IMG/VR virus record: IMGVR_UViG_3300048930_000192
Coordinates: 1 to 64,000 of that record
Direction: 5' to 3' (one strand)
Source: a virus
Length of the DNA: 64,000 nucleotides
Both the position numbers and the translations under genes were made by a program. The notes beneath the pieces are model-generated. The model did not search any database, had not been told where the DNA came from, and saw nothing but the letters and a program-made list of their open reading frames with translations. Numbering within the stretch: position 1 is the stretch's first letter; each line of letters begins with the position of its first letter. Shown here in pieces: positions 5,123 to 30,463 of the stretch.

Positions 5123-5178
5123 TGTTGCCTCTCTTTTGGCTACATCATTACTGTAGTTTTCTTTACTCGGCATGACTA

Positions 5179-6366: not shown

Positions 6367-6374
6367 TCTTTCCT

Positions 6375-8114: not shown

Positions 8115-8137
8115 TATAATTTACAACCTTTGCGAAT

Positions 8138-8674: not shown

Positions 8675-8705
8675 CGATTTACTCCTTGAATTAATACTAC
8701 AAATC

Positions 8706-8713
8706 TATTTATT
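8706..8713 (-). promoter_or_regulatory. Probable late promoter variant AATAAATA upstream of gp19
   Basis: Minus strand reads TAAATAAATAG in the spacer between the endonuclease and gp19. Confidence 0.5.
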
Positions 8714-8716
8714 TAA

Positions 8717-8748
8717 TTTGATCCAAACAATTTACTGTTTGGATCAAA
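8717..8748 (-). terminator. Hairpin/terminator downstream of the homing endonuclease
   Basis: Perfect 13-bp inverted repeat TTTGATCCAAACA-ATTTAC-TGTTTGGATCAAA. Confidence 0.6.
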
Positions 8749-8766
8749 ATGGTTACTTAAAGGGCA

Positions 8767-9639
8767 TTATAAAGCGTTTAGGGCCGTGATCTCGTCAATT
8801 AAACCAGAATATACTTCATTGCATTTTTGTATAGTATATCCGTGGTGTGGAAATGTGAATCCGCCGTAATTTTTGTTATTTTTTACTGTTTTTAGTTTTC
8901 TGTAAATAGACATAAGTGCTCTTATTAGTTTATCGTCGTTTATTACTGTGGATAAAGTTTTTGTGAACTTGACCGTGTTATCTGGTAATGTTACTTTCCA
9001 TGTGTAACTATGATACTTGTTTCCTTTATTTATGTTTCTAAGGTTATTTTTATGCTCTTCTGTTCTCTTATATCGTGCTGCACATCTAATCTTTTCTTTA
9101 GATTCTTCGCATAATATAATTTTCCTGCCAGTATTAGCTTTTCTTAACTTTTCTCTTGTTTCTGCACTGGCTACACGACCACGACTAGCATCACCGATCT
9201 TTTTTCTTGTTTCAGCAGAAAATTTTCTACCAATATTTGCAATTCGTAGTTTTTCTATTACCTCTTGTGGTCTAGGAATACCCCTGCGAGATTTGCTCAT
9301 TTTTTTCTTTGTTTCGTCGTTGTGAGTCGGGCATCCACCGCCACCAGAATTTGAGTTTAATCCACATAAATTGCTGTTATATTGCTCTATGTAAAATATC
9401 TCTTTTTTTAGAGCATCAATTTTAGACAAATTTTCTTCTAATATAGAACACTTGAAGTAATCTTTGCCATATTTTAACAATTCAGACTGAAACTTTGATA
9501 CAATTTTGCCCTTTTTGTGCAAATTTTGAGCATTATAAAAATGAGAATGGAATCTTCTATGGGCTTGTGATGATGTCACGCCTATGTAAATTTGGCTTGT
9601 AGGAATACACGTTATTTTATATACTAAGAATCTTTTCAT
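8767..9639 (-). mobile_element. Free-standing GIY-YIG homing endonuclease with NUMOD3-type repeats, inserted between gp18 and gp19
   Basis: N-terminal LVYKIT...QIYIGVT..RRF..H; repeats HNDETKKKMSKSRRG, FSAETRKKIGDASRG, ASAETREKLRKANTG; more AT-rich than the flanking genes. Confidence 0.92.
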
Positions 9640-9655
9640 TTATTTTATCCAAAAT

Positions 9656-9685
9656 ATGGTTCAACCTCATTACAGGTTGAACCAT
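9656..9685 (-). terminator. Hairpin/terminator between the gp18 stop and the endonuclease start
   Basis: Perfect 12-bp inverted repeat ATGGTTCAACCT-CATTAC-AGGTTGAACCAT, followed on the minus strand by ATTTT. Confidence 0.65.
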
Positions 9686-9689
9686 GGTA

Positions 9690-11435: not shown

Positions 11436-11473
11436 TGTTTAATTCTCCTTAAAGCCTTTTTATGTACGTTAGA

Positions 11474-11481
11474 TATTTATC
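11474..11481 (-). promoter_or_regulatory. Probable late promoter GATAAATA upstream of gp18
   Basis: NATAAATA in the gp17-gp18 spacer. Confidence 0.55.
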
Positions 11482-11493
11482 TTTTTGAGGTTT

Positions 11494-13263
11494 TTAAAAG
11501 AATGCATCCAATCGATCTTGCCCCTCTTCACCACGATTATAATGACGTTTTGTATAGTCTCGTATTCTATCAAAATCGTCTCTTTTTCTGTCCATATTCG
11601 ACTTTTCTTCTGCCAATGCCCGCATATCTGCTTCTGGTGATTCTGATGGATCGTAGAAATCTATAGTGCCGTCGTCGATGAATCCAAACAGACTGACGCT
11701 TTCTTCTAGTTTGCGCATTCTTTCTTTGTATAGATTTTTCTTTAAACTTATATTGGTATAATCTTGGAAATACGTCTGAGTAGTCAACCATGCGAAGGCA
11801 ACTAAAGTCATTACAAGGTCGTCGTGGGTGTCTTTTCTTGCTTGATAAGAACCATTAGTCTTTGTAGACCGAACGAAATTGCTCAATTCAGAAACAATAT
11901 CAAAGTCTGCAAATATTAGTTTCTTATCGACAATAAGATCCTTTAGCTGGGCACAGCCTTGAATCTTTACTGGCCCAGACATCTTTAGACCATATCTTAT
12001 ATGCTTGCCGCCGAAGCCACCGTCTGCCTTTTGACCAGACTTGTCTTCTGAACTAATCAATATTAGATTTGGATAACAAACCTCGTCACTATTCATATCA
12101 GCAGCCACTGCTTCGCCAAGGTCGTTTAATTCGACTAACATATATGCATCATTGTACTGCCGACCAATGCGAGCAAGTATGTTTGGCAATAGCTTTGGGT
12201 TAACAGTATTATTCTTGAATGTTGCGACTACTTTGTATGGTATTTCTGTGCAATCTATTATAGTTGCGGCATGATAATCTTCGCCCATACCTCTACTGGT
12301 ATCTACGCACATCGTATACGTTCTACCCTGTTTGGGCACTTCGTAAATCTTCAATCCTTCTTCGTTTGAATACAACGGATCTGCATATACCATTTCCATA
12401 AGAGCAGATGGTGGCAATAGTGTATTATCTGATCCCAGGAATTCGACTTCATATTCAGACCGCCACTTAGATTCCTTGTTTGAAGGAAAGTTAGCCATGA
12501 CGGTTTGCTTGAATTTCTCATCTCTGCCAGGCACTTCATTCCACTTAGCAGTGCAGGTAGCATAGTTATTTCTACCATGCTCACTGTCGTTCCATAGTTT
12601 ATAAAACATATTAAGACCGTTTGGTGTACTAACTATGATAAGTTTGGTTGTATTACCAGACGTAATAGTTGGAAACACCGAGCTAAAGAATTCCTCTGCA
12701 ATATTTGGACTAATGAACGCGAATTCGTCGATGATAACGATATTAGCACTTTGGCCACGAATTGCGCTTGCGCTGGTTGCATTGACTCTAACTTTGCTGC
12801 CATTTTCTAGATGAATAGAGTGTTTATTCCATTCAACGACACCCTGCTGCATCCATTTAGGCAAATTCTCGTATGCTAGTTTTACTACGTCCAATAAATT
12901 TTTTGCAGTATCTTCTTTGTTGGCAAGAATAGAAACCTTGACGTTGCTATTAAACAGAATATAATGAAGAACATATGCCATAGTTGTAGTAGACTTGCCA
13001 GACTGACGAGCACACCGTACTAGCACAAATCGGTTATTGTGCATAGTATTAATCATATTTTTCTGAAAATTGTAAGGTTTAAACTTAGTAACACCATGAT
13101 CGAGTGTAACAATGTTAACGTAGTTTTCCATAAAATATACAGGGTCTTCTGCACATTTAGTAAGTTCTACAATTTGTTCTTGAGAAAACTCATATTGTAT
13201 ACCAACTGGCTTTAATTGTGAATTGCCAAGATAGCTGTCATCTGGATTGTTCATTTTCGCCAT
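11494..13263 (-). CDS. gp17: Terminase large subunit (gp17-like)
   Basis: Walker A ARQSGKST, Walker B IVIIDEFAF, IVSTPNG, nuclease motifs CVDTSRG and HDDLVM. Confidence 0.98.
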   Translation of the reverse strand: MAKMNNPDDSYLGNSQLKPVGIQYEFSQEQIVELTKCAEDPVYFMENYVNIVTLDHGVTKFKPYNFQKNMINTMHNNRFVLVRCARQSGKSTTTMAYVLHYILFNSNVKVSILANKEDTAKNLLDVVKLAYENLPKWMQQGVVEWNKHSIHLENGSKVRVNATSASAIRGQSANIVIIDEFAFISPNIAEEFFSSVFPTITSGNTTKLIIVSTPNGLNMFYKLWNDSEHGRNNYATCTAKWNEVPGRDEKFKQTVMANFPSNKESKWRSEYEVEFLGSDNTLLPPSALMEMVYADPLYSNEEGLKIYEVPKQGRTYTMCVDTSRGMGEDYHAATIIDCTEIPYKVVATFKNNTVNPKLLPNILARIGRQYNDAYMLVELNDLGEAVAADMNSDEVCYPNLILISSEDKSGQKADGGFGGKHIRYGLKMSGPVKIQGCAQLKDLIVDKKLIFADFDIVSELSNFVRSTKTNGSYQARKDTHDDLVMTLVAFAWLTTQTYFQDYTNISLKKNLYKERMRKLEESVSLFGFIDDGTIDFYDPSESPEADMRALAEEKSNMDRKRDDFDRIRDYTKRHYNRGEEGQDRLDAFF

Positions 13264-13777
13264 TACTAATATCCTCTATCTTTATTTCTTTTAATGGTTC
13301 TTCTGCCTCGGTAATCTGTTGAATGATTGGCAACTTATGACTCTTTATGATGTCTAGAAGGTCTTTAGTAGAACCAATATACATAGAATTGTTTGTATTG
13401 TTTATGCTATTAATACTAGTAATTCTTTCGATATTCTTTATTTCTTTAACTCTCTTGTGCAAGTCTATTAGCTTTTCATTGGCTTCTAAAGTTGCTCTAA
13501 TTAGATCTGCGGCAACTTCGTATGCACTTGGTTTATCTGTTTCTTTGGCTAACATCAATATGCCGTCTACTGCTGCATTGCTCTTGGCTATGATAGACTT
13601 GATATTGCGTCTAATTTCATTATAATCTATTTCTATATTAGAGTCTATAGCCCTATCCGCATCGCCAGTAGCACCAACTATTTCCGTAGACTCTGGTAGA
13701 TTAGCGTTTGCCGGTACTATATCAATGATCGGCTCGATATGAAACTCATTAGAAAGATTTCTATCAATATTATCCAT
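13238..13777 (-). CDS. gp16: Terminase small subunit (gp16-like)
   Basis: DYNEIRRN...PSAYEVAADLI...LIDLHK...NNSMYIGSTKDL; overlaps the gp17 start. Confidence 0.9.
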   Translation of the reverse strand: MDNIDRNLSNEFHIEPIIDIVPANANLPESTEIVGATGDADRAIDSNIEIDYNEIRRNIKSIIAKSNAAVDGILMLAKETDKPSAYEVAADLIRATLEANEKLIDLHKRVKEIKNIERITSINSINNTNNSMYIGSTKDLLDIIKSHKLPIIQQITEAEEPLKEIKIEDISNGENEQSR

Positions 13778-14561
13778 ATGGTCCTGTTATATTAATTTGA
13801 TATGTGCCAGTAGGCCCAAAGCTACCAGCTGTCGCGCCACCAGTAACAGAAACAGATACAGTTTCTAGTAGGTTATAAGAAGTCGATCCGTTTAAGAATG
13901 CATCAAATGAATATCTGTCATAGAAACTAACGTCTGCTGTTCTAATGATCTTGGCTTCTTTAACTGGTCCAATGATTTGAAGTCGCATTATAAAGCTAAT
14001 ACTGCAAATAAATGCTTTGCGTTCTTCAAAGTCGCCTTCATATGGCTCAAAGAATTGTATACCCGCAATAGAAACTGGCACTTCTACTTTATTATTTAAC
14101 GCAATATTATCTATTGTTAGGCTATAGTCGGGTGTAAAATACGGTAATATCTGTTCTATTATTTGAAGCACATCTTCGGTATTCTTACTCATTACATGTA
14201 GAGTAACACTTAAATCGTATGGTGCGTGTACAAACGTATTTCTTATGCCAGTTTCCGGTGAAACAGTAGAATTTGAGAACACTTTACTTATAGTGGATAT
14301 TTTTCTAGTATAATCATACTTTAGGCCAACAATTTCAAATCCCATTCTTGGCAAGCTTATTTCAAAATTGCGGACTAAATTGGGATCACTACTATCATTT
14401 CTTACTATAAATTTCTGTTTTGGTCCATATGAAAGAGGTATTTTAAATCTTTCCAATTCAGTGCCATCGACTGTCTTCCTAGTAATATAGATATCATTAA
14501 ACAGAGTACCAAATGATATTATAGCCTTTCTTATTATACCATGAGAGAAGTATTCTAACAT
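13770..14561 (-). CDS. gp15: Tail sheath stabiliser/terminator (gp15-like)
   Basis: IRKAIISFGTLFNDI, IPLSYGPKQKF, LPRMGFEI and QIIEQILPYFTP motifs. Confidence 0.95.
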   Translation of the reverse strand: MLEYFSHGIIRKAIISFGTLFNDIYITRKTVDGTELERFKIPLSYGPKQKFIVRNDSSDPNLVRNFEISLPRMGFEIVGLKYDYTRKISTISKVFSNSTVSPETGIRNTFVHAPYDLSVTLHVMSKNTEDVLQIIEQILPYFTPDYSLTIDNIALNNKVEVPVSIAGIQFFEPYEGDFEERKAFICSISFIMRLQIIGPVKEAKIIRTADVSFYDRYSFDAFLNGSTSYNLLETVSVSVTGGATAGSFGPTGTYQINITGPYG

Positions 14562-14563
14562 TC

Positions 14564-15421
14564 TTAAGTATCTCCGAAAGGATTATTTTCGTCAAAGTTC
14601 AAAATTTGGTCGCCAGTTTGCTGAATATTTTGATTATCGTTATAGTCATTTTGATCTGTTGTATCAGTTATACTATTAATCTGTGCATAGCCAGAATTAT
14701 ATGAGGCGTATCTTGTAGTAGCCGTACTTGCAAGCCATGACCCGATAACATCTTTGATCTTAATATAAGAATCGGCTACATCTACAACTATACCAGATGC
14801 GTCATATCCAGTAGACCCCGTGGATCCGTTATTATAGTGATATATCGTTTCACCAATTGTTGGCTGACCAATATTAACACCAGTTAGATTTAACGTCATT
14901 CTATAGTCATACAAAGTTGCATAACTATCAATTTCCGGCTCTTTAGTATCAAATACTTCTTGGCTATATTCGAACAATTCGCACCTTAGTTTAAATGTAT
15001 AATTTTTACCCAACTGATAAAAATATGGTTCGTGTTCTACAAACTTTATCTCAAAGAATCCTTTTGTTAGCGGAAAATATATAATATCACCTTCTAGTGG
15101 TCTAGGCATATCAGTTTCTTTCTGAAACCGCAACTTAGAAACACTAAGAACAAGATTATCTTTTACCTGCAAACCAAACTTGGATAATATATCGCCCTGG
15201 CCGTCAAATCCATTCACACTCTCTACATACATTTCAATTGGCTTATGATCTTGAAATACTGATCTTGGATCTTCGCCAAACAATTTATCTTTATTGGCAA
15301 TCGTTCTTGGCAAATAATAAGTATCAAGACCCATTATTTTAATGGATTCAATAATTAGATCTTCTGTTAGATTCTGCTCATTAGAAGCTCTAATCCTATT
15401 AAAATAGTGGTTTGTTGCCAT
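14564..15421 (-). CDS. gp14: Neck protein (gp14-like)
   Basis: EQNLTEDLIIESIKIMG, PLEGDIIYFP, FVEHEPYFYQLGK and C-terminal FDENNPFG. Confidence 0.95.
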   Translation of the reverse strand: MATNHYFNRIRASNEQNLTEDLIIESIKIMGLDTYYLPRTIANKDKLFGEDPRSVFQDHKPIEMYVESVNGFDGQGDILSKFGLQVKDNLVLSVSKLRFQKETDMPRPLEGDIIYFPLTKGFFEIKFVEHEPYFYQLGKNYTFKLRCELFEYSQEVFDTKEPEIDSYATLYDYRMTLNLTGVNIGQPTIGETIYHYNNGSTGSTGYDASGIVVDVADSYIKIKDVIGSWLASTATTRYASYNSGYAQINSITDTTDQNDYNDNQNIQQTGDQILNFDENNPFGDT

Positions 15422-15424
15422 TTT

Positions 15425-16249
15425 TTATCCAATCTCAAAGAACGGTGGATATTCCCACTTAGATCTAACTTCTGCTTCTAATTTTAGTATTTCTTGCTCT
15501 GCTTGCAAATATAATTTGTCGCCTTCTATCATGATGCCACCAGGCAATTGTACGTTATTAAACTTGCTCATATTTGCGCCCCATTGGCGTTTAATAAGAG
15601 CAGTAGCATATTGCTTTAAAAGGATATCGTCATATATTTCCGGATACACAGTAGCGTCATTAATTCTATATGCATCTATAATAAGATAGTCGCCGACTTG
15701 TAGTTCTCGACTCCATTTGGTGTCAATATAAAGACGGTTTCCGCGTCTGTTAAATCGAATCTGCTTGTCTGGGCTTAACATCTGACGAAGAAGAACTAGG
15801 TATTCTTGGGTAATATAATAATGTTGAAGATTTATAGATCCCATTGTGTAGAGATCGTTTAATACATATTGATATCTAACGTCAAACATATTAATGCTAG
15901 ATGCGCTAAAGTGAAATAGATCTCTTACGCTTATTATTGTATCTTCTAGAGGCACAGGAGTAGTTTTACCTACTTCTGTTGGTGTTTGTTCTAAGATGTC
16001 GGCGTTTATAGAACCAGTTGCGCCAGATGCACTTAAAGTAATATATCCGTTTGAAATATCATCTGATGTTACTTGATACTTTAAATATACTCTTTCGCTA
16101 CCGTCAGTAGTATATTCTGCATAAAACTGCAATGCGTCGTCTATTCTATCTGATATTTGAGATTCGTCAACATTTATTTCTATGACAGGATGACCAAGCC
16201 TGCGTAGGCAATAATTGATTAAATCTTCTCTATTTCTTATAGTAATCAA
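15425..16249 (-). CDS. gp13: Neck protein (gp13-like)
   Basis: YCLRRLGHPVIEINV and YATALIKRQWGANMSKF..VQLPGG motifs; TTG start with SD. Confidence 0.95.
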   Translation of the reverse strand: MITIRNREDLINYCLRRLGHPVIEINVDESQISDRIDDALQFYAEYTTDGSERVYLKYQVTSDDISNGYITLSASGATGSINADILEQTPTEVGKTTPVPLEDTIISVRDLFHFSASSINMFDVRYQYVLNDLYTMGSINLQHYYITQEYLVLLRQMLSPDKQIRFNRRGNRLYIDTKWSRELQVGDYLIIDAYRINDATVYPEIYDDILLKQYATALIKRQWGANMSKFNNVQLPGGIMIEGDKLYLQAEQEILKLEAEVRSKWEYPPFFEIG

Positions 16250-16250
16250 C

Positions 16251-16685
16251 TTACTCTCCTATGTCTGGCTTTGGATATTTAGACTTAATATTATTACGCT
16301 TTTTTTGTAGTATCTCTATGCTGTCAGATTTTCCTTCGACAATATGCTCCCATAATGCAACAATTAGTTCGTCTGTTGTTGGATATTCTAATTTTCTTAG
16401 GTCAATATAATCGTCTAGATTTGAATCTTTTTTCTTGGAGTAAAAATTTACAATTGCATCTATTGACTTTGTGCTCTTTAGTATTTCTTCGCCAAGAAAC
16501 CAATTCTTCTCCAAATGTATATTCTGAACTCCTGGTCCATAAAAGTAATGAAACTCGCCACTTTTGTAAGTGCGTCCAGAATAAGATTCCGGTAAACTTG
16601 TCGACCCGGGAAATGCTATATCAACGTATTTTGTTTCATATTCTATACCATTTATATTAACTTTGTCTTTAGTAATGTTGATCAT
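16251..16685 (-). CDS. Putative tail-fibre assembly/chaperone-like protein
   Basis: C-terminal YIDLRKLEYP..DELIVALWE...IKSKYPKP resembles small phage proteins that follow fibre genes. Confidence 0.55.
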   Translation of the reverse strand: MINITKDKVNINGIEYETKYVDIAFPGSTSLPESYSGRTYKSGEFHYFYGPGVQNIHLEKNWFLGEEILKSTKSIDAIVNFYSKKKDSNLDDYIDLRKLEYPTTDELIVALWEHIVEGKSDSIEILQKKRNNIKSKYPKPDIGE

Positions 16686-17335
16686 TATATTAATTTTGGA
16701 TAATAATAATTCGAAGCTGTCATTTTAACTGTTGGGTTAGTAGAGCCACCACCATACTCTATTCTAGCAACCTTTCCGCCATTTAATCCAATTGCGATAT
16801 CTGAAATCTCTGGTACAGCAAGACTAGTATCTTTTGTAATGATGGTGCCGCCATTAACTCTATACTTTGTTGGTCCTGTTGCACCGGTGAGACTTCCCCA
16901 GCCGACAGTGTCATCTAAGTCTCTAAGCATTGCCACACTATCTTGCACATAAACTGCTGCGCAAAAATTATTACTAGAAGCAATACCGGGAGAAGCAATA
17001 AAGGATGAGTAATAAACTTCGCCGCTGCTGTTGTTTGCGTAAATTATACCGCTATCGACCCCTGAACAAGTGCTACCAATATTTCCTACGCTGCTATGAG
17101 ATATAATGTAACCAATCGGTGCACCGTATACATTAACTGTCCAGTTTATTCGATTATCGTCGGAGTTTGCATTTACTGGCTTTTTTAGCGTAGTAAACGT
17201 CGAATTATTTAATACAACAACGCCTGCGTCTACGCAGTTTGATATATTGCCATAAGAATTTGATTCAAAATACGAGTTATTTTTTACAATTATACCATTA
17301 ATACAATTTGAGATATAGAATTGTGGATTACTCAT
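16685..17335 (-). CDS. Putative beta-helix fibre domain protein, possibly the split C-terminal part of the upstream fibre
   Basis: [14 protein letters not shown] and [15 protein letters not shown] repeats; the ATG at 17335 overlaps the upstream stop (ATGAGTAA). The ORF track starts at GTG 17347. Confidence 0.6.
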
Positions 17336-19784
17336 CTGGTGATACACCCCTTGATTTGACGAAAGCGTTTTCTACATATAGGCCGTATTCGAATCCTTCT
17401 AGCCATACATTGTCTTTAATTAGTATGTTTCCACCGTTCTTGACGTATATTCCTTTACCACTAGATCCAGTAACATTGCCAATTAATACTAGAGGCCGTT
17501 TCATTTCATTGTCGCCAATCGTAAAACAGTTGTTTGGACCTTCAGACAAGAAGCAGCAATAGTGGGGGTGTGTTATTCCTTGTGCGACACCCATCATATT
17601 ATTTGGCAAATTAATTGCCACCGATGCAAATTGCATGTGGCCGCTCAAAGAATCAAGTGGGTTACCGGTTATACCAATAGAACTACTAGGTGTTATTCCC
17701 TTGGGAACTTTTACTAGTATATCTACGTTAAAGTCGCCAAATGTCGGGGATCCACTCACAATAGCTTGTAGTTTGTGTACACCATTCATATACGCAGGAG
17801 TCACACCGGGGCCAAAACATACATATCCATTATCAAGAAAGTCATCCGATGCGCCTGTTCCACTCATCAGCCAATAATTGTAGTTTGGATCGCCCAGTGG
17901 TCCAGTCGGACCAGTTACATTAAACGACCCTCTCATGACAAGGGTATTGGGATCACTATATGACTGAGTTCTGTATACAAGCTTTTCTGGATGATCCGAA
18001 ATATATCCGTCTGGAGTTACAATCGGATATGCCAGTGTATATTCACCGGGGGCAAATTCGACGGTTACTTTGCCAAGCCCCTGCTGAGCAGTTGTGTAGT
18101 TAATTTGATCGAATGTTGGTATATTGGCCGCACCACCAGGCAATCCCGGAATTGCATGAGAATCTGAAAACTCATATTTAACAATGTCGCCAGGATTGAC
18201 CTCAATAAGTACTTCGTTTGTTGCTGGCGTGGTTGTGCCAGATCCCGGTGCGCCGTCTGCACCAGACGGCCCTTGAGGACCATCTGCGCCGGTGGGCCCT
18301 GTTGGACCTGCGGGTCCAGTGGGCCCGGTACTACCATTAGCACCGTTAGTACCATTCGTGCCGTTAGTGCCGTTGGTGCCAGTGGGTCCTGCGGCGCCAG
18401 TGGGTCCTGCGGCGCCAGTGGGTCCTGCGGCGCCAGTGGGTCCTGCGGCGCCAGTGGGTCCTGCGGCGCCAGTGGGTCCTGCAGCACCGGGTGTGCCTTG
18501 TGGGCCAATTTCAATGCCTGCGCCGCTTAGTTTCTTATATCGAATAATATAATTGCTCGACACATATGGTGATATATTTGTAAATGGGGTATTTGTAAAT
18601 TCAATTGGATTATTACCACTGGGAATATAATCTTTACCAGTCGAAATAACAGAATTTCTTGCAACTCGTATAGTTGCAGCAGAAGTATATCCTGTTGATA
18701 CACCAGTTATACCAATTTCATGGCTGTGACTAGGAAGATTTGCTTTAGACAAAATGATGTTTTCTTCACCACTCATGTAGCCGTGTGGATAAGAAGCTAG
18801 CCCGTGACCAGTATTGCTACCAACTACGAATCTACCTCTTAAATCTGGTACAAAGAATTTCGTGCTAGTCAGCCCTGCACTCGGCGCAGATCCATACGAA
18901 GAAATTTTAATTGTGGTAGATGAAGTTGTTGTTAAACTTGCAGCACCGGCAATAGTATATTCATTGACAAATCTGCAAAAATTATCTGTTGAAGAAGCAG
19001 ATGTAATTTTTGCAACTATTCTATTTGTGCAACTTGCTGTTGGCGAAGACGGAATTGGCCAACCGAATTCATATCTATCACCAAGTTCAAATCCGTGATT
19101 TTTTGTATGATAAGAAGCTGGATCACTTAGACCGTCATTAAATGTAACTGTACCACTTAGACCGATACCAGTAATACCACCAAAGATATAATATCTGTCG
19201 GCTATTACACCATACAGATCCTCGTATTCGCCAGTTAGACTTGGCGATCCAGATGTAACGTCTTTAGGAAATGCGTCACCATTACAAAGTAGCCAATTTC
19301 CTGGAATATTATTTGGCAAGCCACCGTACGCAATAATAGTACCAACTGGTGTATATAATCCAACTTCACCGCCACCACTAGAACTTGTTCGTAGACTATT
19401 AACTACTATACCAGATGTGACTCCGGTTGCTATGAGTATAGGGTTGGTAATATGACTACTTACATTTGGTGCGCCTGTCAACGATCCAGAAAGCGATCCA
19501 GACAGATAATATATGTTTCCGGGTGTATAAGACACAGAGGGCGAACTGAACGCCCCCTGCATAATTAATTCAAAGCTGCTACCATTAGCAGATTCAACTA
19601 TACCACCAGCAAAACTAGTAGCACTTGAATCAGCTATAGCCAACCGCCAACCAGTCGAAGTATTATATACGACTTGACCCGGAGAAAAACTATTAGATTG
19701 ATTTACTAATATTTTTATACGGCTACCGTCAGAAGATCCACCACTAAGACCGTATATACTTGGATTGATTGCACTATAAGCCAT
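17328..19784 (-). CDS. Tail fibre protein: tail-collar domain, collagen-like G-X-Y region, C-terminal beta-rich domain
   Basis: [16 protein letters not shown]...[13 protein letters not shown]...NLPSHSH collar motifs; GAAGPT and GTN repeats. Confidence 0.85.
18378..18485. repeat. 18-bp tandem repeat x6 (GCCAGTGGGTCCTGCGGC) encoding GAAGPT
   Basis: Five perfect copies plus one copy with a single mismatch. Confidence 0.92.
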
Positions 19785-19801
19785 TTATGATTTACCCTAT
19801 T

Positions 19802-20956
19802 TTATTTAGATTGTAGCCAACCATGAACTGTATGATTTAACTTTTCTTCTACCTTTGGTTTGAGATCTATTGGTAGCTTTCCTTCTCTAAGGAGCCGCTC
19901 ACATGTAGCCTTACACTCATGATAATTTTCTAGCAGATGGCTAACTTGAGCCATCTCAAATGATATTGCCCATTCATATATGAATGGCACTGTGAACAAT
20001 GCACCCTTGGGGAATGCCAATTTAGACGCGATTCTGTAAAATCTATAGGCTTGATCTAGTCTGCCATACTGCGAACACAGTCTGCCTGCATAGAACAAAC
20101 TTTCTGCACGAATTGGCGAAGCTGCATGAGCATCTACATAGTGCTTAATAATTTCGTCAATCGGATAAACCATTGACTTAGTTTCTGCGTTTATGGCTTC
20201 CTTTAGCTTACCAACTTCGAACAAACTCCAAAATACTTCTTCGTTCCAGCCACCAAGACTTGCTCGCTTAGAATAACATTCGATTGCCTTTTTGTAACTT
20301 CTGGCATCACGATAGCACTGAGCCATATAGAAATGATATCTGTTTACATCTTTTTCTGCAACTGTACCCTTTGCAAATTCATCTTCAAACAACTTGGCAT
20401 CTTTGAGATACTTTTCGGGATCTTTGCTGCGGGCGCCATCTTGAATCGGGCGATTAATAAACCCATCTGCTTTGGCGCGAGTTTTAATTTCATCATGGCA
20501 ATCTACATATTCGTGACATACACCACTATAGTAGAATTTTAGTCGGCTGCTTGTTAGCTGCGGCCTAAAATATTCTACTGGTCCAGCATGTGCAAATACG
20601 TCGTACAAATCTGCGTTTAAACCTACTTTGAAAGATTCGGGATTAAAATCGTGATTGAACTCCAATATTTCATCAGCGTCGATCATGAGATTATAATCAC
20701 CTTCTGGTCGAGCCAATTCTAGCAATTCAGATCTATTATGGCCAAAATTTACCCATGGTCTTTCATATAGCTTTCCTTCGATGCCAACCCGCTTAAAGAA
20801 GTCTTTAATCTTTTCTTGAGTTCCATCAGTGCTGCCAGTATCGACTATAACCCAGTTATCAATAACTGGCATAGTACTTGCAAGGCATCTTTCGATGACA
20901 TGGGACTCATTTTTCACAATCATACACAAAGTTACTTTCGTCATTCTATTCTCCAT
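19802..20956 (-). CDS. Family 2 glycosyltransferase with C-terminal TPR-like helices
   Basis: LCMIVKNE, IVDTGSTDGT, NFGHNR, DXD motif in MIDADE, GVCHE; helical repeats YHFYMAQCYRD and AESLFYAGRLC. Confidence 0.92.
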   Translation of the reverse strand: MENRMTKVTLCMIVKNESHVIERCLASTMPVIDNWVIVDTGSTDGTQEKIKDFFKRVGIEGKLYERPWVNFGHNRSELLELARPEGDYNLMIDADEILEFNHDFNPESFKVGLNADLYDVFAHAGPVEYFRPQLTSSRLKFYYSGVCHEYVDCHDEIKTRAKADGFINRPIQDGARSKDPEKYLKDAKLFEDEFAKGTVAEKDVNRYHFYMAQCYRDARSYKKAIECYSKRASLGGWNEEVFWSLFEVGKLKEAINAETKSMVYPIDEIIKHYVDAHAASPIRAESLFYAGRLCSQYGRLDQAYRFYRIASKLAFPKGALFTVPFIYEWAISFEMAQVSHLLENYHECKATCERLLREGKLPIDLKPKVEEKLNHTVHGWLQSK

Positions 20957-20967
20957 ACTAATAATGC

Positions 20968-21180
20968 TTATTCTGGTATATTTATGATCAGCTGAATGAT
21001 ATACCGTGGACCAAGTTCAACTAAACCATTAGATGCGTTTAAACCCTTCATTATATCATTAACTGAAAATGGTGCAGTGACAGAATATGGTATAAGTATA
21101 AGTTCCAATATATTTTCTGGCGGCATTAGATGTATCATTCCCGTAGAAGGAAATACATACATTACTATCTGATTGGGCAA
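20968..21180 (-). CDS. Small hypothetical protein
   Basis: TTG start 8 nt after a strong SD (AAGGAG); fills the gap between the fibre and glycosyltransferase genes. Confidence 0.55.
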   Translation of the reverse strand: MPNQIVMYVFPSTGMIHLMPPENILELILIPYSVTAPFSVNDIMKGLNASNGLVELGPRYIIQLIINIPE

Positions 21181-21193
21181 TACTATTTCTCCT

Positions 21194-22969
<1,776 letters not shown>

Positions 22970-22981
22970 TGTTTCACCTTA

Positions 22982-23761
22982 TTATCGAAATAATATATCA
23001 CATGCCCCTGTGGCAGGATCTGCTACACCATCACCACCGGATTCTGTAAAACCGATGCATATGGCATTGTTACGAGCGCCGTACGCAAGATCTATCCACC
23101 CAGAATCATAATATCCAGTTCCAGCCATACTAGTTTCTACCTGCGATGACAGCCCCAATTGTAGAAAATTTGAAACAGTTGTGTTGTAGGAAGTATAATA
23201 TTTAGCAGTGAATAGCGAGCCGGCGGTACCAACAACTTGCTTATTTACTCTAAACCTAACTTGAGTATAACCAGCCAAGTCGACCATGAATAAATGTCTC
23301 GTAGTATTACCAGCAAATCTTTCTGCCAAAGTAGCGTTGGACATTGCAAAATTTCCTGCGGCGTTGCCGTGTACGGTGAAAGATTTGATTGGTTTATACG
23401 ATCCGTCTGTTATCCAACCAACACCAGACTCATACGTTACAGCATCTCCCGAATCAAGCACAGAAGAATATAACGTGGCACCACACTCTATTGTTATTGC
23501 ATGAGATATTGTGTCCATATTTACAAGCCGCATAAATTTTACATTTTTTACTGTTGCCGTTGATGAAGGTCCAGCAACAATATTTACCACACTTGTGCCA
23601 TTAGAATCAGAAACGCTATTGTCCCATGTTGGCAAAGATGAGCCATTGACTGTAATTTCATTAAAAGACGCATAGCATTCTATTGGAACTGTGTCATGTG
23701 CTTCATCGAGCACCATTGTTAAATTCTGAGAGTTCTTTATTGTTATCATATCATACTCCAC
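22982..23761 (-). CDS. Hypothetical virion/fibre-associated protein
   Basis: 259-aa beta-rich ORF between two collagen genes. Confidence 0.65.
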
Positions 23762-25707
23762 ATTATTATTTCGGCGACAGACATTGAATTAATACCGGCT
23801 GGTCCTGTGGCACCTGTAAGACCAATTGGTCCTGTTGGTCCTGTTGGTCCTGTTGGTCCTGTGGCACCTGTAAGACCAATTGGTCCTGTTGGTCCTGTTG
23901 GTCCTGTGGCACCTGTAAGACCAATTGGTCCTGTTGGTCCTGCAATACCTTGTGCCCCTGTGTCACCAGTTGGTCCTGTTGGTCCTGTTGGTCCTGTGGC
24001 ACCTGTAAGACCAATTGGTCCTGTTGGTCCTGCAATACCTTGTGCCCCTGTGTCACCAGTTGGTCCTGTTGGTCCTGTGGCACCTGTAAGACCAATTGGT
24101 CCTGTTGGTCCTGCAATACCTTGTGCCCCTGTGTCACCGGTTGGTCCTGTTGGTCCTGTGGCACCAGTGGCACCGAAAAGAGAGATACCATCTTGATCTA
24201 TTTGCATCGATAAAATATCGATAAAGTCTAAATCGCCAATTTCGTTTGGTATCGCAATATACAAACTAGCTTCGTCGATATTATACCATAGTTTGCCGAT
24301 TGTCGCGGCGGGTGGTGATGCGCTAACTTCTACCGCAAAATCGCCGGTAATAGTAGAACCAGATACCGAAGAGCTGAAGTAGATGGTATTTGTAAGCTCG
24401 TCGGAATAGATGGACACACCACCATTGCCAACTAACCGTAATATTTCTCCAGAACTTCTGTCGGTTTCTGATAGTCTATACTTGGCAACAAGATTCTGAC
24501 TACCAGAAACAGATATTGTATGAAATGCCTCACCAAGACCACCACCTGAAGATATTACATTTTGCTTTGGTAAATATTTCGAAAGCTTTTCATAATCAAT
24601 ATCAAGAACATTATTATTTAATCGTAAAAATGTATTTGGTTTTACAGATATTATTGTACTTGTGCCCGCTGGACCGGTTTCACCCCTCGGACCAACCTCA
24701 CCTCTTAGACCATCTTTACCATTTAAGCCTTTATCGCCCTTTGGTCCCGTTGGTCCAATATCACCTTTATCGCCCTTTGGTCCCGTTGGTCCAATATCAC
24801 CTTTATCGCCCTTTGGTCCTGTTGGTCCAATATCGCCTTTATCACCGGTAGGTCCCGTTGGTCCCGTTGGTCCAATATCGCCTTTATCACCCTTTGGCCC
24901 GGCGATGCCTTTATCGCCTTTATCACCCTTTGGCCCGGCGATGCCTTTATCGCCTTTATCACCGGTAGGTCCTGCTGCTCCCGTTGGTCCAATATCGCCT
25001 TTATCGCCGGTAGGTCCTGCTGCTCCCGTTGGTCCAATATCGCCTTTATCGCCTTTATCGCCTTTATCACCCTTATCACCCTTATCACCCTTATCACCCG
25101 TTGGTCCTGTTGGGCCTGTTGGGCCTGTCGGACCTACAGGCCCAACAGGCCCCCTTTCACCTTTTACACCACTGGGACCAATGTCACCTTTATCACCCTT
25201 TGGTCCATCCATACCTCTTGGGCCTTGTATGCTAATACTATCAGATGATTTTTGCTGGTAAGATATATTTTCTGATATAATTGATGGAACATTTGATGTT
25301 TTTAGACCCGAGATAGATAATAGATTCGATCTATACCTACTAGAAATAGTATCATAATTTCCGTAATCGTCTGCTATTAGGATCTTATCGTTTACATTCT
25401 TGAATTTATAAACTGAGCCTTTGTCATAATTCAAAAATGATTCTGTGCAAATAACTTCGTCGTTGTCATATAAAGACAAAATATCGATATCGAAAAGTTT
25501 GTTTATAGATTTAATAGATCCGGTCACCCTTGTGACGATATCTTCATTCAAATTCTTAATCAATACAACAAAATTCCCAGAATCCAATTTATAGTCTTCT
25601 ACAATTTCATTTGAAATTGATTTTACTACTTCAACAACACTAAATTCTTTAATAGATCCAACAGACTTTAGTATTGTATATTTTACTGGGAAATTATGTT
25701 CTTCCAT
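23746..25707 (-). CDS. Collagen-like protein with two G-X-Y regions (charged GDK-rich and Thr-rich)
   Basis: A GDKGDK/GPK array and a C-terminal [24 protein letters not shown] array, separated by an SSGGG-containing domain. Confidence 0.85.
23801..24175. repeat. Collagen-coding array nearly identical in DNA to 22578-22862
   Basis: Same unit GGTCCTGTGGCACCTGTAAGACCAATTGGTCCTGTTGGTCCTGCAATACCTTGTGCCCCTGTGTC(G/A)CCAGTT. Confidence 0.9.
24662..25225. repeat. Collagen-coding array ([12 protein letters not shown])
   Basis: Repeated (G/A)CCTTTATC units and 36-bp higher-order units. Confidence 0.88.
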
Positions 25708-26264: not shown

Positions 26265-26594
26265 TTACTTAGTAACTTCTGGATCAACTAGTGCCGTGCC
26301 TTGGTAAGATCTAACTACTGTGCCATTCGCATAGTGAAATTCAACGTCATATACATATCTTGCTGGCTTTAAGCTGGCACTAGCGGTTGCGCTCATGAAT
26401 AATGCGAAACTACCTGTGCCACCAGTAACAGAAACTTGAATTTCTTTATATGTGTCCGTATAATAACTTGTCTTTAGATAACAGTATCCTGTGCTGCCAG
26501 ATAGATCTAATGCCAAGTTATTTTCATTATACGCAGTTAATGACTTATTGTAAGTCTCGCCCTGATTTATGTACAAATTTAAATACTTTGACAC
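26265..26594 (-). CDS. Small virion structural protein of a type common in aquatic T4-like phages
   Basis: NLYINQGETY...LKPARYVYDVE...QGTALVDPEVTK pattern. Confidence 0.7.
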   Translation of the reverse strand: MSKYLNLYINQGETYNKSLTAYNENNLALDLSGSTGYCYLKTSYYTDTYKEIQVSVTGGTGSFALFMSATASASLKPARYVYDVEFHYANGTVVRSYQGTALVDPEVTK

Positions 26595-26596: not shown

Positions 26597-29500
26597 TTAT
26601 GATCCTATTCTGTAATAAGTTATATGACGCATTCTCGGATCACTAGAACCACTATCCATGCTGATATTTATCGTCGAAGTAACATTAGTAACAACACAGT
26701 TGAATGTAACTGGGTTGCTTGCATTGATAGTTCCAAGAGAGTAATCTACACCATTTACAGTAGCGGTCAATGACACACTTGAACTACTTGACTGGGCAAT
26801 GAAAGCTGTGATGAAATATGCGCCCGGTATAAGACCAGATATCGTGTATGAAGTTGCATCAGTTTGTATATTACCGGCAGGCAAGCACGATTGATCTACA
26901 TATTGCTTATTTGCTGCATGGTGATCAGCTGTTGGGAATGTAAGTCCGGTGATCTTTGCTGTGCCGGCTGGTGTATTAAACGGATCGGCATTTCTGTCGT
27001 CGTAGAAATCCAAAGAAGGTGGATTAGATCTAGAGCCATCGTCTTTCAACAGAGATCCCATTATAAATGCGCGACTTGCTACTGGGTCAACACCAAATAC
27101 TGGTTTGCCGAGTAGGCCGCCTCTTCGTATAGGCGAAGTATCGCCACCACCGGTGTAACCATCTGGCCATACAGTCATATCTCCGAAGAAATATGTCTCC
27201 ATTCTAGAATTGCCGACACCAACCGCAGACGCCTTGGTGACAAAGGTATCCCAAATTGGTATACCCTTATGCAATATTTGATACTGATTTTCTACGTTAC
27301 CAGAACCTGTTATAGCATTGATGAATAGTTGCCCGTTATCGTCAAGCAGCTTGAAACTACTTGCGTATATTTCATATTTGCCTTGATCTGGGCTGCTAAA
27401 CAGGTGGGTATTGCCGCTCGACTTCTTGGTCCATATATCTCCGCCGCCCTGCATCAACAGATTGGCAGAATCTATTACCAAATCACCGGTCATCATATCA
27501 CCAGCAACGTCAACATAGTAGTCGTCGGTTTCAGTTTTGCTATAAACTTCGATCTTATCACGGAACGCATCAAGATTTGTTGGCGATATGTACTGCGGAG
27601 TACCATCATATCTTACATAAATCGAATCATGGTTGTGTGTAAGACTGCTTACGGTATATCCGTTACCTTCAGCATACGCCGAAGAAATTATATTTGATCT
27701 TGCTGTATAGGCTTGCGCACTGCTCAAAGCCTGATTGTCGTCAAATCTTACATATCTCAAGTCGTGGTCGTGAGTAGCACCGAATGTTGGCAAACTAGAT
27801 CCTAGGCCAATACCGGCAAGATACGCATTTTCTCTAAACGTAGCTCTACCGCCGTCTGTAAGGCCGTCAACTGAGCCATGAGTTGCATCATATCTAATAT
27901 ATCTTAGATCGTGATTGTGCCCAGTAAGTATAGTAGCCTTAGTAGAAGACCGTGCTCGAATTATGTAGTAAGTTACTACGTTTCTTGGCTCAATTGAGAA
28001 TGGCTCATTGTTGCCCGTGGCACTTGTATTTGTACTAAATCCGCTGCCACTGACTACAGCTTGACCGACACCAAAGGCTGCGGTAGTAACATTTAGCCCG
28101 TGAGAGTGAGAAGGCATATTGGCATTGCTCAAAGCAACAGAAGTAATACCAGACACAGAGCCAATGTCAAGATCAGTTGACTTGCCTCTGATGTATCTAG
28201 ATCTTAGATCTGGCACAAAGAACTGGCTTACACTAGATGAGTTGCTTACAATTCTTAACTCGTATACGCCACTAACAGGTGCAGTACCACTTACAGTTAT
28301 CGTTGTAGAAGTTATAGAAGATATTGTTCTGGATTCTACAACACCAGCAGTGTTTGTAAGTGTAATATTATCGCCGACTTCTAGATTTCTAGAACCATCA
28401 GTGCAAACACAAGTTGTTGTGCCACTAAATGTGACTCTAACAAAATACTTATCTTGCAATACACGATCTAGATCCGGATAAGAAGAGGTGTTATACTTAG
28501 ATCCATCGCATACAACCCATTCTGTTGAAAGATATTCTAAACCACCAGCATATGGATATATGGTACCGATTGGCACTAAACCACTTAGATATAGTTCGTC
28601 TGTAGGATCTTCAATTACAGTACCAATGTAATTGATTATATATCCTTCTGTTTCACTAGACGCAATAAGCATTGGCTTTCTTACGCCGCCCGATGGTATT
28701 CTAGTCAATACATTTAGATCTGGATCAGAAATTAGTTTACCGGCAACTACACCACTCAAGAAATATACTTCACCTGCACTGAACGGCACACCTTCTACAG
28801 TATTAACAGAACCACTCAAGCCCTTTATAAGGCCTTTCATGGTTATCACAAACGAATCGCCACTCACAGAAGAAACTACACCAAGCGATTCGGCATTTTC
28901 TACGGAGTCTGCTAGAGCCTTTACATAGTCGCCACTTGTATTAATTCTTACGATATCGCCAAATGTCAATCCGTGCGCAGACTGCGAAACTCTCCGACGC
29001 AACGAGTTTGTTTCTAACAAGTCGCCAGAAATTAATCCGTATTCGTCAGAAATGGGTATAGAATATGGGCTAGAGTAAGTATAACCATGTGCGCCATCAA
29101 GCTGATCTACGTTTAGACCCTTTGCAAAACTGGTTGTTGTTATTCCAGAATATGCTCGCCAATTTTCTCCGGTGCCACCGGCAGCAGAAATGCTACCATA
29201 TACACTAAATGCCAAATTCTTTCCATCAACTATATTAGTATCACTATACCATACTTTTAATGTATTTTGATCTGAAAGATTGTCTGGTACTTTAGAAATT
29301 ACCCAGCCACCAGAGAACTGCCCATTATTTGTAGCGCCTATCGGAAGTTCTGTTAACTGAATCTGCAAATATTCGTTTGTTCTTGCCGCGAATATAAAGT
29401 TATCGCCAGTATATCCAGTTACACCATCATAACCATATGACCTGTGTATTCTACCGATAAATGGATCCCACGAGCCACTTAGACCAATGCCAACATTAGA

Positions 29501-30463
29501 GATCCACGAATTGTAGTTAAGCCCTGTGTCCGGATCGTTATTAATCCAGATAAATTGCTTGTCACTTTCGGATCCCTTTAGAACAATACCACCTTCGCTA
29601 AGTTCGTTATTGTTCAAGAAATCATTATACGGTGTGCCCACACTAACAATTGAATTTCTAGTAGAACCTGTAGATTGAAGTGAGATATATCCGGTTCTAC
29701 CAATCAAGTCATCTGCGTCGTATGGGTCGCTGAACGGAGAACCAATATAGAATATACCTGTCGGACCAGCGACTGTGCCAGTATAGCTATTAAACTGCGC
29801 AGATAGATATGCAGTCAAACTTACATTATCTTCAAAGTAATATGCAGTTGCACCAAAGTTACCAGCAGTATATGAACCGGCTGTTACACCTGTAAGATTT
29901 AACGCAACACCACGCTGATATGCAAGTTCAATTTGCTTATCTTCAATTCTTAAATTGTTAGCACCAATAAATGTGTTTTGGCCCAAAACACTAAGATTAC
30001 CCAACACAATTATATTGCCACCAAATTCGTGGTCGTCATCAATAGAATATGGTAGAATCTTAGATGCTCTTACCTTTTTGACTGTACCATTAGCTCCCAA
30101 TGATGTGTCGCTAACATCGTTGATTATATATTCGTCCAAACTAGAAACCGCAAGACTGCCACTCAGAGTTAGGCCATAAACGTCAAATTCAGTATAATCT
30201 ATTATAGTTTTGGTCACACCACCGTATAAGTTAGTGGTGCCAATTCCTGGGCCAGGATTAACACTAAGAGTAACTACGCCATTGTAATTACCAGCACTTA
30301 TTCCAGTCTGCTTTAACAGACCACCACTCAGGCCAGTTTCAACCTCATATACTTGCAATGGATTAAGATATTGTATGACTTCATTGGTTTTAATGAGCCA
30401 ATTATTGAAGGTATCAGATCTAGCTAGTGAGTCGATATTGATTAAATCGCCAGTTAATGACAT
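26597..30463 (-). CDS. Large baseplate-attached fibre protein with a tail-collar domain and HxH repeats
   Basis: N-terminal SDTFNNWLIKTNE; collar PIGTIYPYAGG..WVVCDG..FFVPDLR..MPSHSH; three H-x-H-D-x-x-Y-x-R-(Y/F)-D repeats; HAANKQYVD. Confidence 0.8.
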   Translation of the reverse strand: MSLTGDLINIDSLARSDTFNNWLIKTNEVIQYLNPLQVYEVETGLSGGLLKQTGISAGNYNGVVTLSVNPGPGIGTTNLYGGVTKTIIDYTEFDVYGLTLSGSLAVSSLDEYIINDVSDTSLGANGTVKKVRASKILPYSIDDDHEFGGNIIVLGNLSVLGQNTFIGANNLRIEDKQIELAYQRGVALNLTGVTAGSYTAGNFGATAYYFEDNVSLTAYLSAQFNSYTGTVAGPTGIFYIGSPFSDPYDADDLIGRTGYISLQSTGSTRNSIVSVGTPYNDFLNNNELSEGGIVLKGSESDKQFIWINNDPDTGLNYNSWISNVGIGLSGSWDPFIGRIHRSYGYDGVTGYTGDNFIFAARTNEYLQIQLTELPIGATNNGQFSGGWVISKVPDNLSDQNTLKVWYSDTNIVDGKNLAFSVYGSISAAGGTGENWRAYSGITTTSFAKGLNVDQLDGAHGYTYSSPYSIPISDEYGLISGDLLETNSLRRRVSQSAHGLTFGDIVRINTSGDYVKALADSVENAESLGVVSSVSGDSFVITMKGLIKGLSGSVNTVEGVPFSAGEVYFLSGVVAGKLISDPDLNVLTRIPSGGVRKPMLIASSETEGYIINYIGTVIEDPTDELYLSGLVPIGTIYPYAGGLEYLSTEWVVCDGSKYNTSSYPDLDRVLQDKYFVRVTFSGTTTCVCTDGSRNLEVGDNITLTNTAGVVESRTISSITSTTITVSGTAPVSGVYELRIVSNSSSVSQFFVPDLRSRYIRGKSTDLDIGSVSGITSVALSNANMPSHSHGLNVTTAAFGVGQAVVSGSGFSTNTSATGNNEPFSIEPRNVVTYYIIRARSSTKATILTGHNHDLRYIRYDATHGSVDGLTDGGRATFRENAYLAGIGLGSSLPTFGATHDHDLRYVRFDDNQALSSAQAYTARSNIISSAYAEGNGYTVSSLTHNHDSIYVRYDGTPQYISPTNLDAFRDKIEVYSKTETDDYYVDVAGDMMTGDLVIDSANLLMQGGGDIWTKKSSGNTHLFSSPDQGKYEIYASSFKLLDDNGQLFINAITGSGNVENQYQILHKGIPIWDTFVTKASAVGVGNSRMETYFFGDMTVWPDGYTGGGDTSPIRRGGLLGKPVFGVDPVASRAFIMGSLLKDDGSRSNPPSLDFYDDRNADPFNTPAGTAKITGLTFPTADHHAANKQYVDQSCLPAGNIQTDATSYTISGLIPGAYFITAFIAQSSSSSVSLTATVNGVDYSLGTINASNPVTFNCVVTNVTSTINISMDSGSSDPRMRHITYYRIGS

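Follow-up and report, generated by a model that had tools for sequence, protein, structure and literature searches.

The 64,000-nt stretch analysed here (the window; positions 1-64,000 of IMG/VR record IMGVR_UViG_3300048930_000192, G000, with a full length of 131,810 bases) stems from an uncultured T4-like phage, covers its structural half and encodes, within the fibre module, a 384-amino acid (aa) enzyme that combines a family 2 glycosyltransferase (GT2) domain of the GT-A fold with a helical TPR-like domain. The domain make-up and fold of this enzyme, its conserved catalytic-type residues, the order of the surrounding genes and a family-wide linkage to genes for collagen-like proteins point to a glycosyltransferase (GT) that probably acts on fibre proteins of the phage itself. 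The collar-plus-collagen fibre protein encoded next to it, f818, is the candidate main acceptor, while we regard it as evenly balanced whether the threonine (Thr) residues of the collagen triplets are the main glycosylation sites. From comparison with described systems, we would classify the arrangement as the SgtA-BclA3 type of collagen glycosylation, found here in a phage fibre operon.

The GT2-TPR enzyme and its nearest relatives

The GT-A domain of the enzyme comprises approximately residues 1-175, with alternating strands and helices between residues 8 and 170 in an AlphaFold2 (AF2) model built on 32 homologues (mean predicted local distance difference test score, pLDDT, 93.3), and is followed by an all-helical TPR-like domain of approximately residues 180-384 with ten helices. 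Pfam family Glycos_transf_2 (PF00535) matches residues 10-99 with an E value of 1.2e-08 (35.5 bits, cut-off 23.3 bits), the only GT2 match in the record, and PHROG 13126, 'beta-1,4-glycosyltransferase', matches with E 1.6e-16. The DXD motif (D93-A-D95, in LMIDADE) is invariant across 32 close and 33 distant homologues; D39, D93, D95, H148 and E149 as well as charged residues of the helical domain do not vary in 33 sequences with identities down to 32%. Metal dependence is expected because of the DXD motif. The enzyme contains no hydrophobic segment (maximum 19-residue hydropathy 1.12) and is predicted to be a soluble protein. A role as a non-catalytic TPR chaperone was considered and rejected in view of the invariant DXD motif and the other invariant GT-A residues.

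When a family profile was compared with all PDB sequences, GmaR from Listeria ranked first (E 8.5e-14), followed by SunS (3-4e-09), ThuS (2e-06) and designed consensus TPR (CTPR) proteins; glucosyl-3-phosphoglycerate synthases and TarS appeared only at E >0.1. Foldseek placed SunS and ThuS at the top over the full length (E 4e-15 to 2e-13, template modelling (TM) scores 0.59-0.62), followed by RmlT and TarP at about 1e-06 with partial coverage and TarS within the range of 1e-06 to 1e-05, and aligned designed CTPR proteins with the C-terminal half. Matches in the ESM Atlas were exclusively GT2 and GT2-TPR clusters of viral and bacterial origin, one of them automatically named SunS family. The nearest characterised relatives, GmaR, SunS and ThuS, are all protein or peptide glycosyltransferases, and because both the PDB profile search and Foldseek rank them first, the enzyme is placed with this group and not with transferases modifying lipopolysaccharide (LPS), wall teichoic acid (WTA) or DNA. 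The first-pass annotation of this DNA, made without database searches, had suggested a comparison of this kind, for which a grouping with protein glycosyltransferases would count as support; its reading of the gene as a DXD-containing GT2 with a TPR-like part is borne out as well.

SgtA from Clostridioides difficile, 358 aa in length, consists of a GT-A domain (aa 1-260) and four TPRs (aa 262-358), is encoded immediately upstream of bclA3 and adds beta-O-N-acetylglucosamine (GlcNAc) to Thr, and also to serine (Ser), of collagen-repeat peptides with UDP-GlcNAc and Mn2+ (PMC7157674). The pairing stated for this organism in the first-pass annotation agrees with this description. Compared by description, the phage enzyme resembles SgtA in the fusion of an N-terminal GT-A domain with C-terminal TPRs in one soluble protein of similar size, and in the location of its gene immediately upstream of, and co-oriented with, a Thr-rich collagen-like structural gene, here with a gap of 17 nt between its stop codon and the start of f818. 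The settings differ, a spore coat there and a phage fibre operon here, and some partners of the phage enzyme lack Thr in their collagen runs.

GmaR (Listeria monocytogenes, anti-repressor of MogR, PDB 22ao) is the best solved sequence relative, matching profile positions 7-120, and represents a cytoplasmic glycosyltransferase for a surface-filament protein. This 637-aa protein begins with a GT domain of some 180 residues, which attaches GlcNAc to flagellin, and continues with TPRs, a linker and an anti-repressor (PMC9638930). The order of GT domain and TPRs is shared by the phage enzyme, whereas the linker and anti-repressor domains are not present in its 384 residues and flagellar genes were not seen in the PHROG/Pfam annotation of the window; it is thus not a GmaR-type protein. 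SunS and ThuS (PDB 7msn, 7msp, 7msk), the best full-length folds, likewise combine GT-A with a helical domain for binding of the acceptor and have ribosomal peptides as substrates, but they share only 14-16% sequence identity with the phage enzyme and glycosylate cysteine. The SunS family model TIGR04195 (NCBIfam) reached 34.2 bits against a cut-off of 350, which does not indicate membership, and the neighbours of the phage gene are fibre genes, with no glycocin precursor, transporter or thiol-disulfide gene nearby. TarP, TarS and RmlT reach query-normalised TM scores of at most 0.35; the phage enzyme differs from them by its TPR-like C-terminal domain and its fibre context and does not belong to this group.

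Conservation of the gene pair in phages

The enzyme belongs to a large family. A word-indexed protein search retrieved 5,509 relatives at E <=1e-05, the best 120 of which are 53-97% identical and stem from contigs of up to 199 kb, and the matching representative clusters number 26,408 at E <=1e-03 and 4,625 at E <=1e-30. In IMG/VR, 475 confirmed stretches encode a relative of the enzyme, and the counts for phage loci given below refer to the best 80 of them (loci are designated by L and a number). A tblastn search of 50,697 phage records with the enzyme yielded ten records and no cultured T4-like phage; the best matches were the cultured Tunturiibacter jumbo phage Tunturi_5, with 32.5% identity, and four uncultured phages with huge genomes; megablast of the 8.4-kb region against the same collection returned only collagen-repeat matches to two megaphage records.

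An f818 homologue follows the GT gene directly, on the same strand and after a gap of 2-124 nt, in 62 of the 80 phage loci, and the GT gene lies inside the fibre module in all 78 loci with a downstream flank long enough to judge, the flanks of the other two being too short for an assignment of the downstream gene. The usual order in relatives is p1617, f1288, p109, GT, f818 homologue, p144 and gp13, with p109 directly upstream of the GT gene in most cases. The genes p189, f653, p259, f591 and p70 form an insertion common to the window and L003 only, and partly to L006; among the 80 loci an f591 homologue occurs in L003 only. Because the upstream collagen genes belong to this lineage-specific insertion, the downstream gene is the only conserved partner. 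The conserved feature is consequently the location of the GT gene directly upstream of a collagen-bearing fibre gene, and a position between Thr-rich collagen genes, as emphasized in the first-pass annotation, applies to this phage as a peculiarity of its lineage. In L015, a gp32/gp59/UvdE/DUF6433 block is found upstream of the GT-f818 pair in place of f1288 and p109, and L077 exhibits the same layout by ORF listing. Since the pair is kept in L015 despite the changed upstream neighbours, it has moved as a unit. In L065, the gene upstream of the GT gene encodes a second transferase of the HtrL/GT2 type.

Among the 150 entries listed, 40 long (fused) forms of the enzyme were picked by hand, and 31 of these carry further domains beyond GT2 and TPR, namely GT25, GT1, Anp1, sulfo-, methyl- or pyruvyltransferase domains or the GT domain of PLOD. 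The fused forms fit an initiating transferase whose product would later be extended and decorated.

Collagen-like open reading frames (ORFs), defined for phage loci as ORFs on the GT strand with 8 or more triplets in runs of 5 or more, are present in 52 of the 80 loci and in 43 of the 51 loci whose downstream sequence extends over 4 kb or more. The share of Thr at position Y of the Gly-X-Y triplets ranges from 0 to 0.78 across the phage partners and amounts to 0.4 or more in 23 of the 52 collagen-positive loci. In an independent sample anchored on the neck gene gp13 and restricted to loci with at least 5 kb upstream, GT and collagen genes occurred together in five loci and were both absent from 21, with no locus containing only one of the two. 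The whole genomes of Pelagibacter phage Mosig (141 kb) and Synechococcus phage Syn19 (175 kb), which are not among the tblastn matches to the enzyme, contain 0 collagen matches, and the GT-bearing records G006, G007 and Tunturi_5 contain 6, 22 and 4, respectively. All four matches in Tunturi_5 fall into the tail-fibre gene gp29 (110 triplets, Thr at Y in 66), 3.7 kb away from the GT gene gp35. Between these two genes reside four consecutive hypothetical genes of similar length, gp30-gp33, each encoding about 280 aa (L001, 13397-16815).

Collagen linkage among bacterial relatives

A scan of one bacterial genome per species yielded at least 600 loci, the best 80 of which were examined. Their GT2-TPR proteins are 34-44% identical to the phage enzyme over the full length and originate from Chlamydiota, Streptomyces, Bradyrhizobium, Xanthobacter, Ancylobacter, Acidovorax, Cupriavidus, Paraburkholderia, Acinetobacter bohemicus, Polyangiaceae, Holophagaceae, Flagellimonas and others. 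A collagen-like ORF is located within 8 kb of the GT gene in 42 of the 80 loci (25 of 42 when only loci with full flanks are counted), and the nearest one is no more than 500 nt away in 20 of the 80 and no more than 2 kb away in 31. Thr occupies at least half of the Y positions in 35 of the 42 collagen-positive loci. As a control, five of these genomes (3.6-9.8 Mb) were found to hold between one and about six collagen loci, one of which always lies beside the GT gene; from these counts, the chance of meeting a collagen locus in a random 17-kb window is estimated at about 1%.

The four annotated bacterial contexts (Table 1) are chromosomal surface-protein loci and neither prophages nor polysaccharide clusters. 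The arrangement in A. bohemicus suggests cytoplasmic glycosylation of a substrate of the type I secretion system. The bacterial data extend a pairing known from SgtA and BclA3 of a single spore-former to Chlamydiota, Streptomyces, alpha-, beta- and gamma-proteobacteria, Myxococcota and Bacteroidota. One GT2-TPR family might even initiate O-glycans quite generally on collagen-like fibres of prokaryotes and viruses, from spore hairs, chlamydial surface proteins and adhesins secreted by Gram-negative bacteria to phage tail fibres, with a large uncultured T4-like clade and some jumbo phages glycosylating their own fibres. In that case, glycans on fibres would add a so far unrecognised layer to host recognition by phages or to their protection; this wider proposal is tentative, and we rate its prospects as slightly below even.

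Counter-evidence and alternative acceptors

A number of observations weigh against a fibre-glycosylating enzyme or against collagen Thr as its target. The four TPR families that match the enzyme (E 2e-05 to 6e-03) all stay below their cut-offs. The GT gene is not followed by an f818 homologue in 16 of the 80 phage loci, where either gp13 is directly next (nine loci) or an ORF of about 277-308 aa precedes gp13 (seven loci, with a collar domain in the ORF of L080). Of the 51 loci with a downstream stretch of 4 kb or more, eight (L004, L026, L036, L037, L063, L065, L072 and L078) are devoid of a collagen ORF; L036 and L037 hold 12 triplets each, but in runs of four and thus below the definition applied. 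No collagen ORF lies near the GT gene in 38 of the 80 bacterial loci, 17 of them with full flanks. Furthermore, the co-occurrence tables are confounded by relatedness: the five GT-positive loci of the gp13-anchored sample are the closest kin of the window and therefore stand for one or few evolutionary events, not for 26 independent ones.

The 16 phage loci without a downstream fibre gene would also suit an enzyme that modifies a host surface polymer (LPS, teichoic acid, capsule) or a host surface protein, e.g., blocking superinfection or altering adsorption, instead of the phage's own fibres. GT2 enzymes are best known for envelope glycans, many relatives are labelled 'glycosyltransferase involved in cell wall biosynthesis' by the Joint Genome Institute (JGI), Foldseek also finds the WTA enzymes, and glycosyltransferases of cyanomyophages have been read as host-surface or DNA modifiers, with the host surface favoured (PMC12801897). 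On the other hand, the phage enzyme does not possess a membrane segment, the match to WTA enzymes is confined to the GT-A part, and the gene is fixed in the fibre module in all judgeable loci and stays with the fibre gene when upstream neighbours change. Bacterial relatives, moreover, are situated beside collagen-like genes and not in polysaccharide clusters in the four scanned contexts. Modification of the host surface is, in our view, unlikely.

A further alternative, glycosylation of a hydroxymethylated or otherwise modified base in the phage DNA for evasion of restriction as by the T4 glucosyltransferases, could draw on the T4-like nature of the phage and on the incompleteness of its record (72% complete by CheckV estimate). 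The Tunturi_5 homologue gp35 (32% identity) points in the same direction and has to be counted against fibre glycosylation, as it is also flanked by a nucleotidyltransferase gene and by genes of pyrimidine metabolism, with thymidylate synthase, dCMP deaminase and dUTPase genes nearby. The alpha- and beta-glucosyltransferases of T4 adopt the GT-B fold, whereas the enzyme studied here combines GT-A with TPRs and is not a member of that group. PF00303, the thymidylate-synthase/hydroxymethylase family, has no match in the 72%-complete, 131.8-kb record, in which genes for ThyX, a dCTP-deaminase/dUTPase and two DNA methyltransferases are present instead, and the GT gene is surrounded by fibre and not by DNA-metabolism genes in all judgeable phage loci. 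Because no hydroxymethyl-pyrimidine pathway is seen in the record and the fold is GT-A, DNA glycosylation is weakened to the point of being very improbable.

A different objection concerns the site of modification. The collagen runs of f818 in L035, L038 and L039 do not contain any Thr, the share of Thr at Y is below 0.1 in eight of the 52 collagen-positive phage loci, and the 93%-complete phage of L035 has just one further collagen gene, which is of a charged GER/GEK type and contains 4 Thr among its 73 triplets. These Thr-poor and Thr-free collagens are the main evidence against Gly-X-Thr as a universal acceptor. They would agree with glycosylation of virion proteins at Ser/Thr outside the collagen triplets, either in conserved fibre regions other than the collagen runs or in further proteins on the outside of the virion, as the GT is still 55-57% identical in L035, L038 and L039 and in loci with a collar-only downstream protein (L080). 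By sequence, the closest relative of solved structure is GmaR, whose acceptor is a protein without collagen (PMC9638930). In the ORFs of at least 100 aa in the window, G-x-T outside collagen runs occurs 78 times in fibre-module proteins against 42.6 expected from shuffles, 66 times in other structural proteins against 43.9, and 64 times in non-structural proteins against 62.1, the latter not being an excess. As evidence for non-collagen sites this is weak, since the excess is modest and could be an ordinary sequence pattern of fibres. The strong and specific linkage of the bacterial relatives to Thr-rich collagen ORFs and the activity of SgtA on collagen Thr (PMC7157674) argue against main sites outside the triplets, to which we assign a small but appreciable probability.

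Glycosylation of the phage's own fibre proteins, the central proposal of the first-pass annotation, is thus favoured indirectly, by family, fold and synteny, and held back by the loci without a downstream fibre gene and by the Thr-free collagens. Two of the refuting conditions set in that annotation, a grouping with LPS- or DNA-modifying enzymes and a lack of linkage in relatives, did not materialise. The linkage to Thr-collagens in relatives, which had been named as a means of checking it, is present as far as collagen is concerned, in phages and bacteria alike, and does not extend to Thr-rich triplets in the phages, where these are not conserved among the partners.

Proposed course of fibre glycosylation

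If the fibre proteins are the acceptors, the enzyme would be made together with them in late infection and would use a nucleotide sugar of the host in the host cytoplasm. The TPR-like C-terminal domain would hold the protein acceptor, and an O-linked sugar, by analogy with SgtA and GmaR presumably GlcNAc, would be added to Ser/Thr of the fibre proteins while the fibres assemble or beforehand. In the first place, f818 would serve as acceptor, and in this phage the two additional Thr-rich fibre proteins encoded upstream, f591 and f653, would probably be glycosylated too. The virion would then bear glycosylated fibres, with helix stability, shielding or adhesion as conceivable benefits. A gene of the prolyl-hydroxylase type was not found in the 131,810-base record.

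Virion glycosylation in mycobacteriophages was reportedly described by Freeman et al. in 2023. The acceptors there are capsid and tail-tube C-termini (PMC12619734), and two unidentified virion glycoproteins have been detected in the Xanthomonas jumbo phage XacN1 (PMC5852040). According to the available portions of these sources, phage-encoded glycosylation of virion proteins is described for mycobacteriophages only. The likeness to the system proposed here lies in phage-encoded glycosyltransferases shown or proposed to act on the phage's own structural proteins; hosts and lineages differ, and the available portions describe neither a TPR-fused GT2 nor a collagen-like fibre. No account of phages that pair a GT2-TPR enzyme with collagen-like fibres was found in the literature searched, which did not include subscription journals. 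Should the proposal hold, a large group of environmental T4-like phages, represented by the 475 IMG/VR stretches and the 4,625 clusters at E <=1e-30, would make glycoprotein fibres, with a bearing on host recognition, on particle stability in water and on collagen triple helices that are stabilised without hydroxyproline.

The fibre module of the phage

In the window, the transcription order is f1288, p109, p189, f653, p259, f591, p70, the GT gene, f818, p220, p144 and the gene for a gp13-like neck protein (Table 1), and the minus strand carries all large ORFs from position 1 to 48,292. The products of the three genes with which the first-pass annotation had found the enzyme co-oriented, f818, f591 and f653, all lie above the Pfam Collagen cut-off and account for 12 of 12 collagen matches of the record. 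In f818, a conserved N-terminal part of 426 aa with a tail-collar motif is followed by the collagen run (aa 427-516) and a variable C-terminal part of 300 aa; residues 475-880 of f1288 are paralogous to the N-terminal part of f818. The N-terminal collagen run of f591 (aa 37-132) consists of 32 triplets with Thr at Y in 23 (GPT 12, GLT 4, GAT 4, GDT 3). In f653, a GDK-rich N-terminal run that also features GPT (aa 162-350) and a second run rich in GPT, GAT and GLT (aa 512-640) add up to 106 triplets, 45 of them with Thr at Y. The earlier description of the triplets as mostly G-X-T accordingly suits f591 as well as the C-terminal run of f653; it applies to f818 only in part. The f591 run (22549-22897) and the C-terminal run of f653 (23745-24228) are built from a common family of DNA repeats, up to 77% identical in register, and encode the same peptide unit, which suggests that a collagen module has been exchanged or duplicated between the two genes.

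Table 1. Features of the fibre module (positions in the window) and annotated bacterial contexts of GT2-TPR homologues.
Feature	Position	Strand	Evidence and remarks
End of the module (downstream)	15425..17347	-	p220 16685-17347; p144 16251-16685; gp13-like neck protein 15425-16249
f818, fibre protein, 818 aa, collar + collagen	17328..19784	-	Pfam Collagen E 2.3e-13; Collar E 1.7e-04 (below cut-off)
Collagen run of f818, 30 triplets, (GAAGPT)n then GTN repeats	18237..18506	-	Thr at Y in 10, at X in 5
GT2(GT-A)-TPR glycosyltransferase, 384 aa	19802..20956	-	Pfam, AF2 model, Foldseek, PDB profile search
p70, small ORF between f591 and GT gene, 70 aa, TTG start after AAGGAG	20968..21180	-	53% identical copy in L003
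f591, fibre protein, 591 aa, lineage-specific	21194..22969	-	Pfam Collagen E 7.2e-13
p259, 259-aa ORF between the two upstream collagen genes	22982..23761	-	No Pfam, PHROG or NCBIfam match
f653, fibre protein, 653 aa, two collagen runs	23746..25707	-	Pfam Collagen E 1e-47
p109, 109-aa protein	26265..26594	-	phrog_1084; weaker match to L-shaped tail fibre assembly family
f1288, large fibre protein, tail-collar domain, no collagen run	26597..30463	-	Pfam Collar E 4.1e-06 (above cut-off)
Acinetobacter bohemicus ANC 3994 context (L152)	270-14692		Giant collagen/Ig-like/RTX-repeat adhesin, then GT2-TPR homologue, then complete type I secretion system (TolC-like, ABC, HlyD)
Flagellimonas context			Two collagen genes, GT2, GT2-TPR-GT2 fusion
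Context in a chlamydial metagenome-assembled genome			Collagen, GT2-TPR, GT92, two more collagen genes, STELLO-type transferases
Chlamydiae SM23_39 context			GT2-TPR-methyltransferase beside collagen protein with BclA_C match (below its cut-off)

Genomic setting and further observations

The T4-like setting proposed for the window from its sequence was confirmed by PHROG and Pfam matches to scaffold, prohead protease, portal, tube, sheath, both terminase subunits, neck, baseplate wedge and hub and, past 50 kb, to gp32, gp59, RNase H, RegA, clamp, clamp loader, family B polymerase, ThyX and ribonucleotide reductase. The portal protein shares 45-47% identity with its counterparts in Pelagibacter phage Mosig and in Synechococcus myophages. 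Of the 'late fibre operon' named in the first-pass annotation, the co-oriented fibre block stands. The T4 late-promoter word TATAAATA occurs three times against ten expected and not within the module at 17328-25707, and scans for sigma-70 promoters and terminators gave background levels only; since none of these scans produced a signal above background, the designation as late derives from position only.

Several minor features of the phage deserve mention. A gene for a GIY-YIG-type homing endonuclease (phrog_314, E 8e-31; window 8767-9639, minus strand) is inserted between the tail sheath and tail tube genes, and a protein with a TnsA-like endonuclease N-terminal domain (E 1.4e-21; window 48333-48794, plus strand) is encoded at the strand switch between baseplate genes. 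The large subunit of ribonucleotide reductase (1,300 aa; G000 62785-66687, minus strand; L083:785-4687) contains an intein with an HNH endonuclease within its barrel domain. Family B DNA polymerase is split over two adjacent ORFs (G000 68545-71228, minus strand; L083:6545-9228), the first of which (426 aa) comprises the exonuclease and the start of the polymerase domain and the second (467 aa) the remaining polymerase domain. Two proteins with signalling-type domains unusual for a T4-like phage are a PAS-domain protein (G000 76574-77242, minus strand; L083:14574-15242) and a cREC_REC (cyclic-phosphate processing receiver) protein (G000 93499-93906, plus strand; L084:13499-13906).

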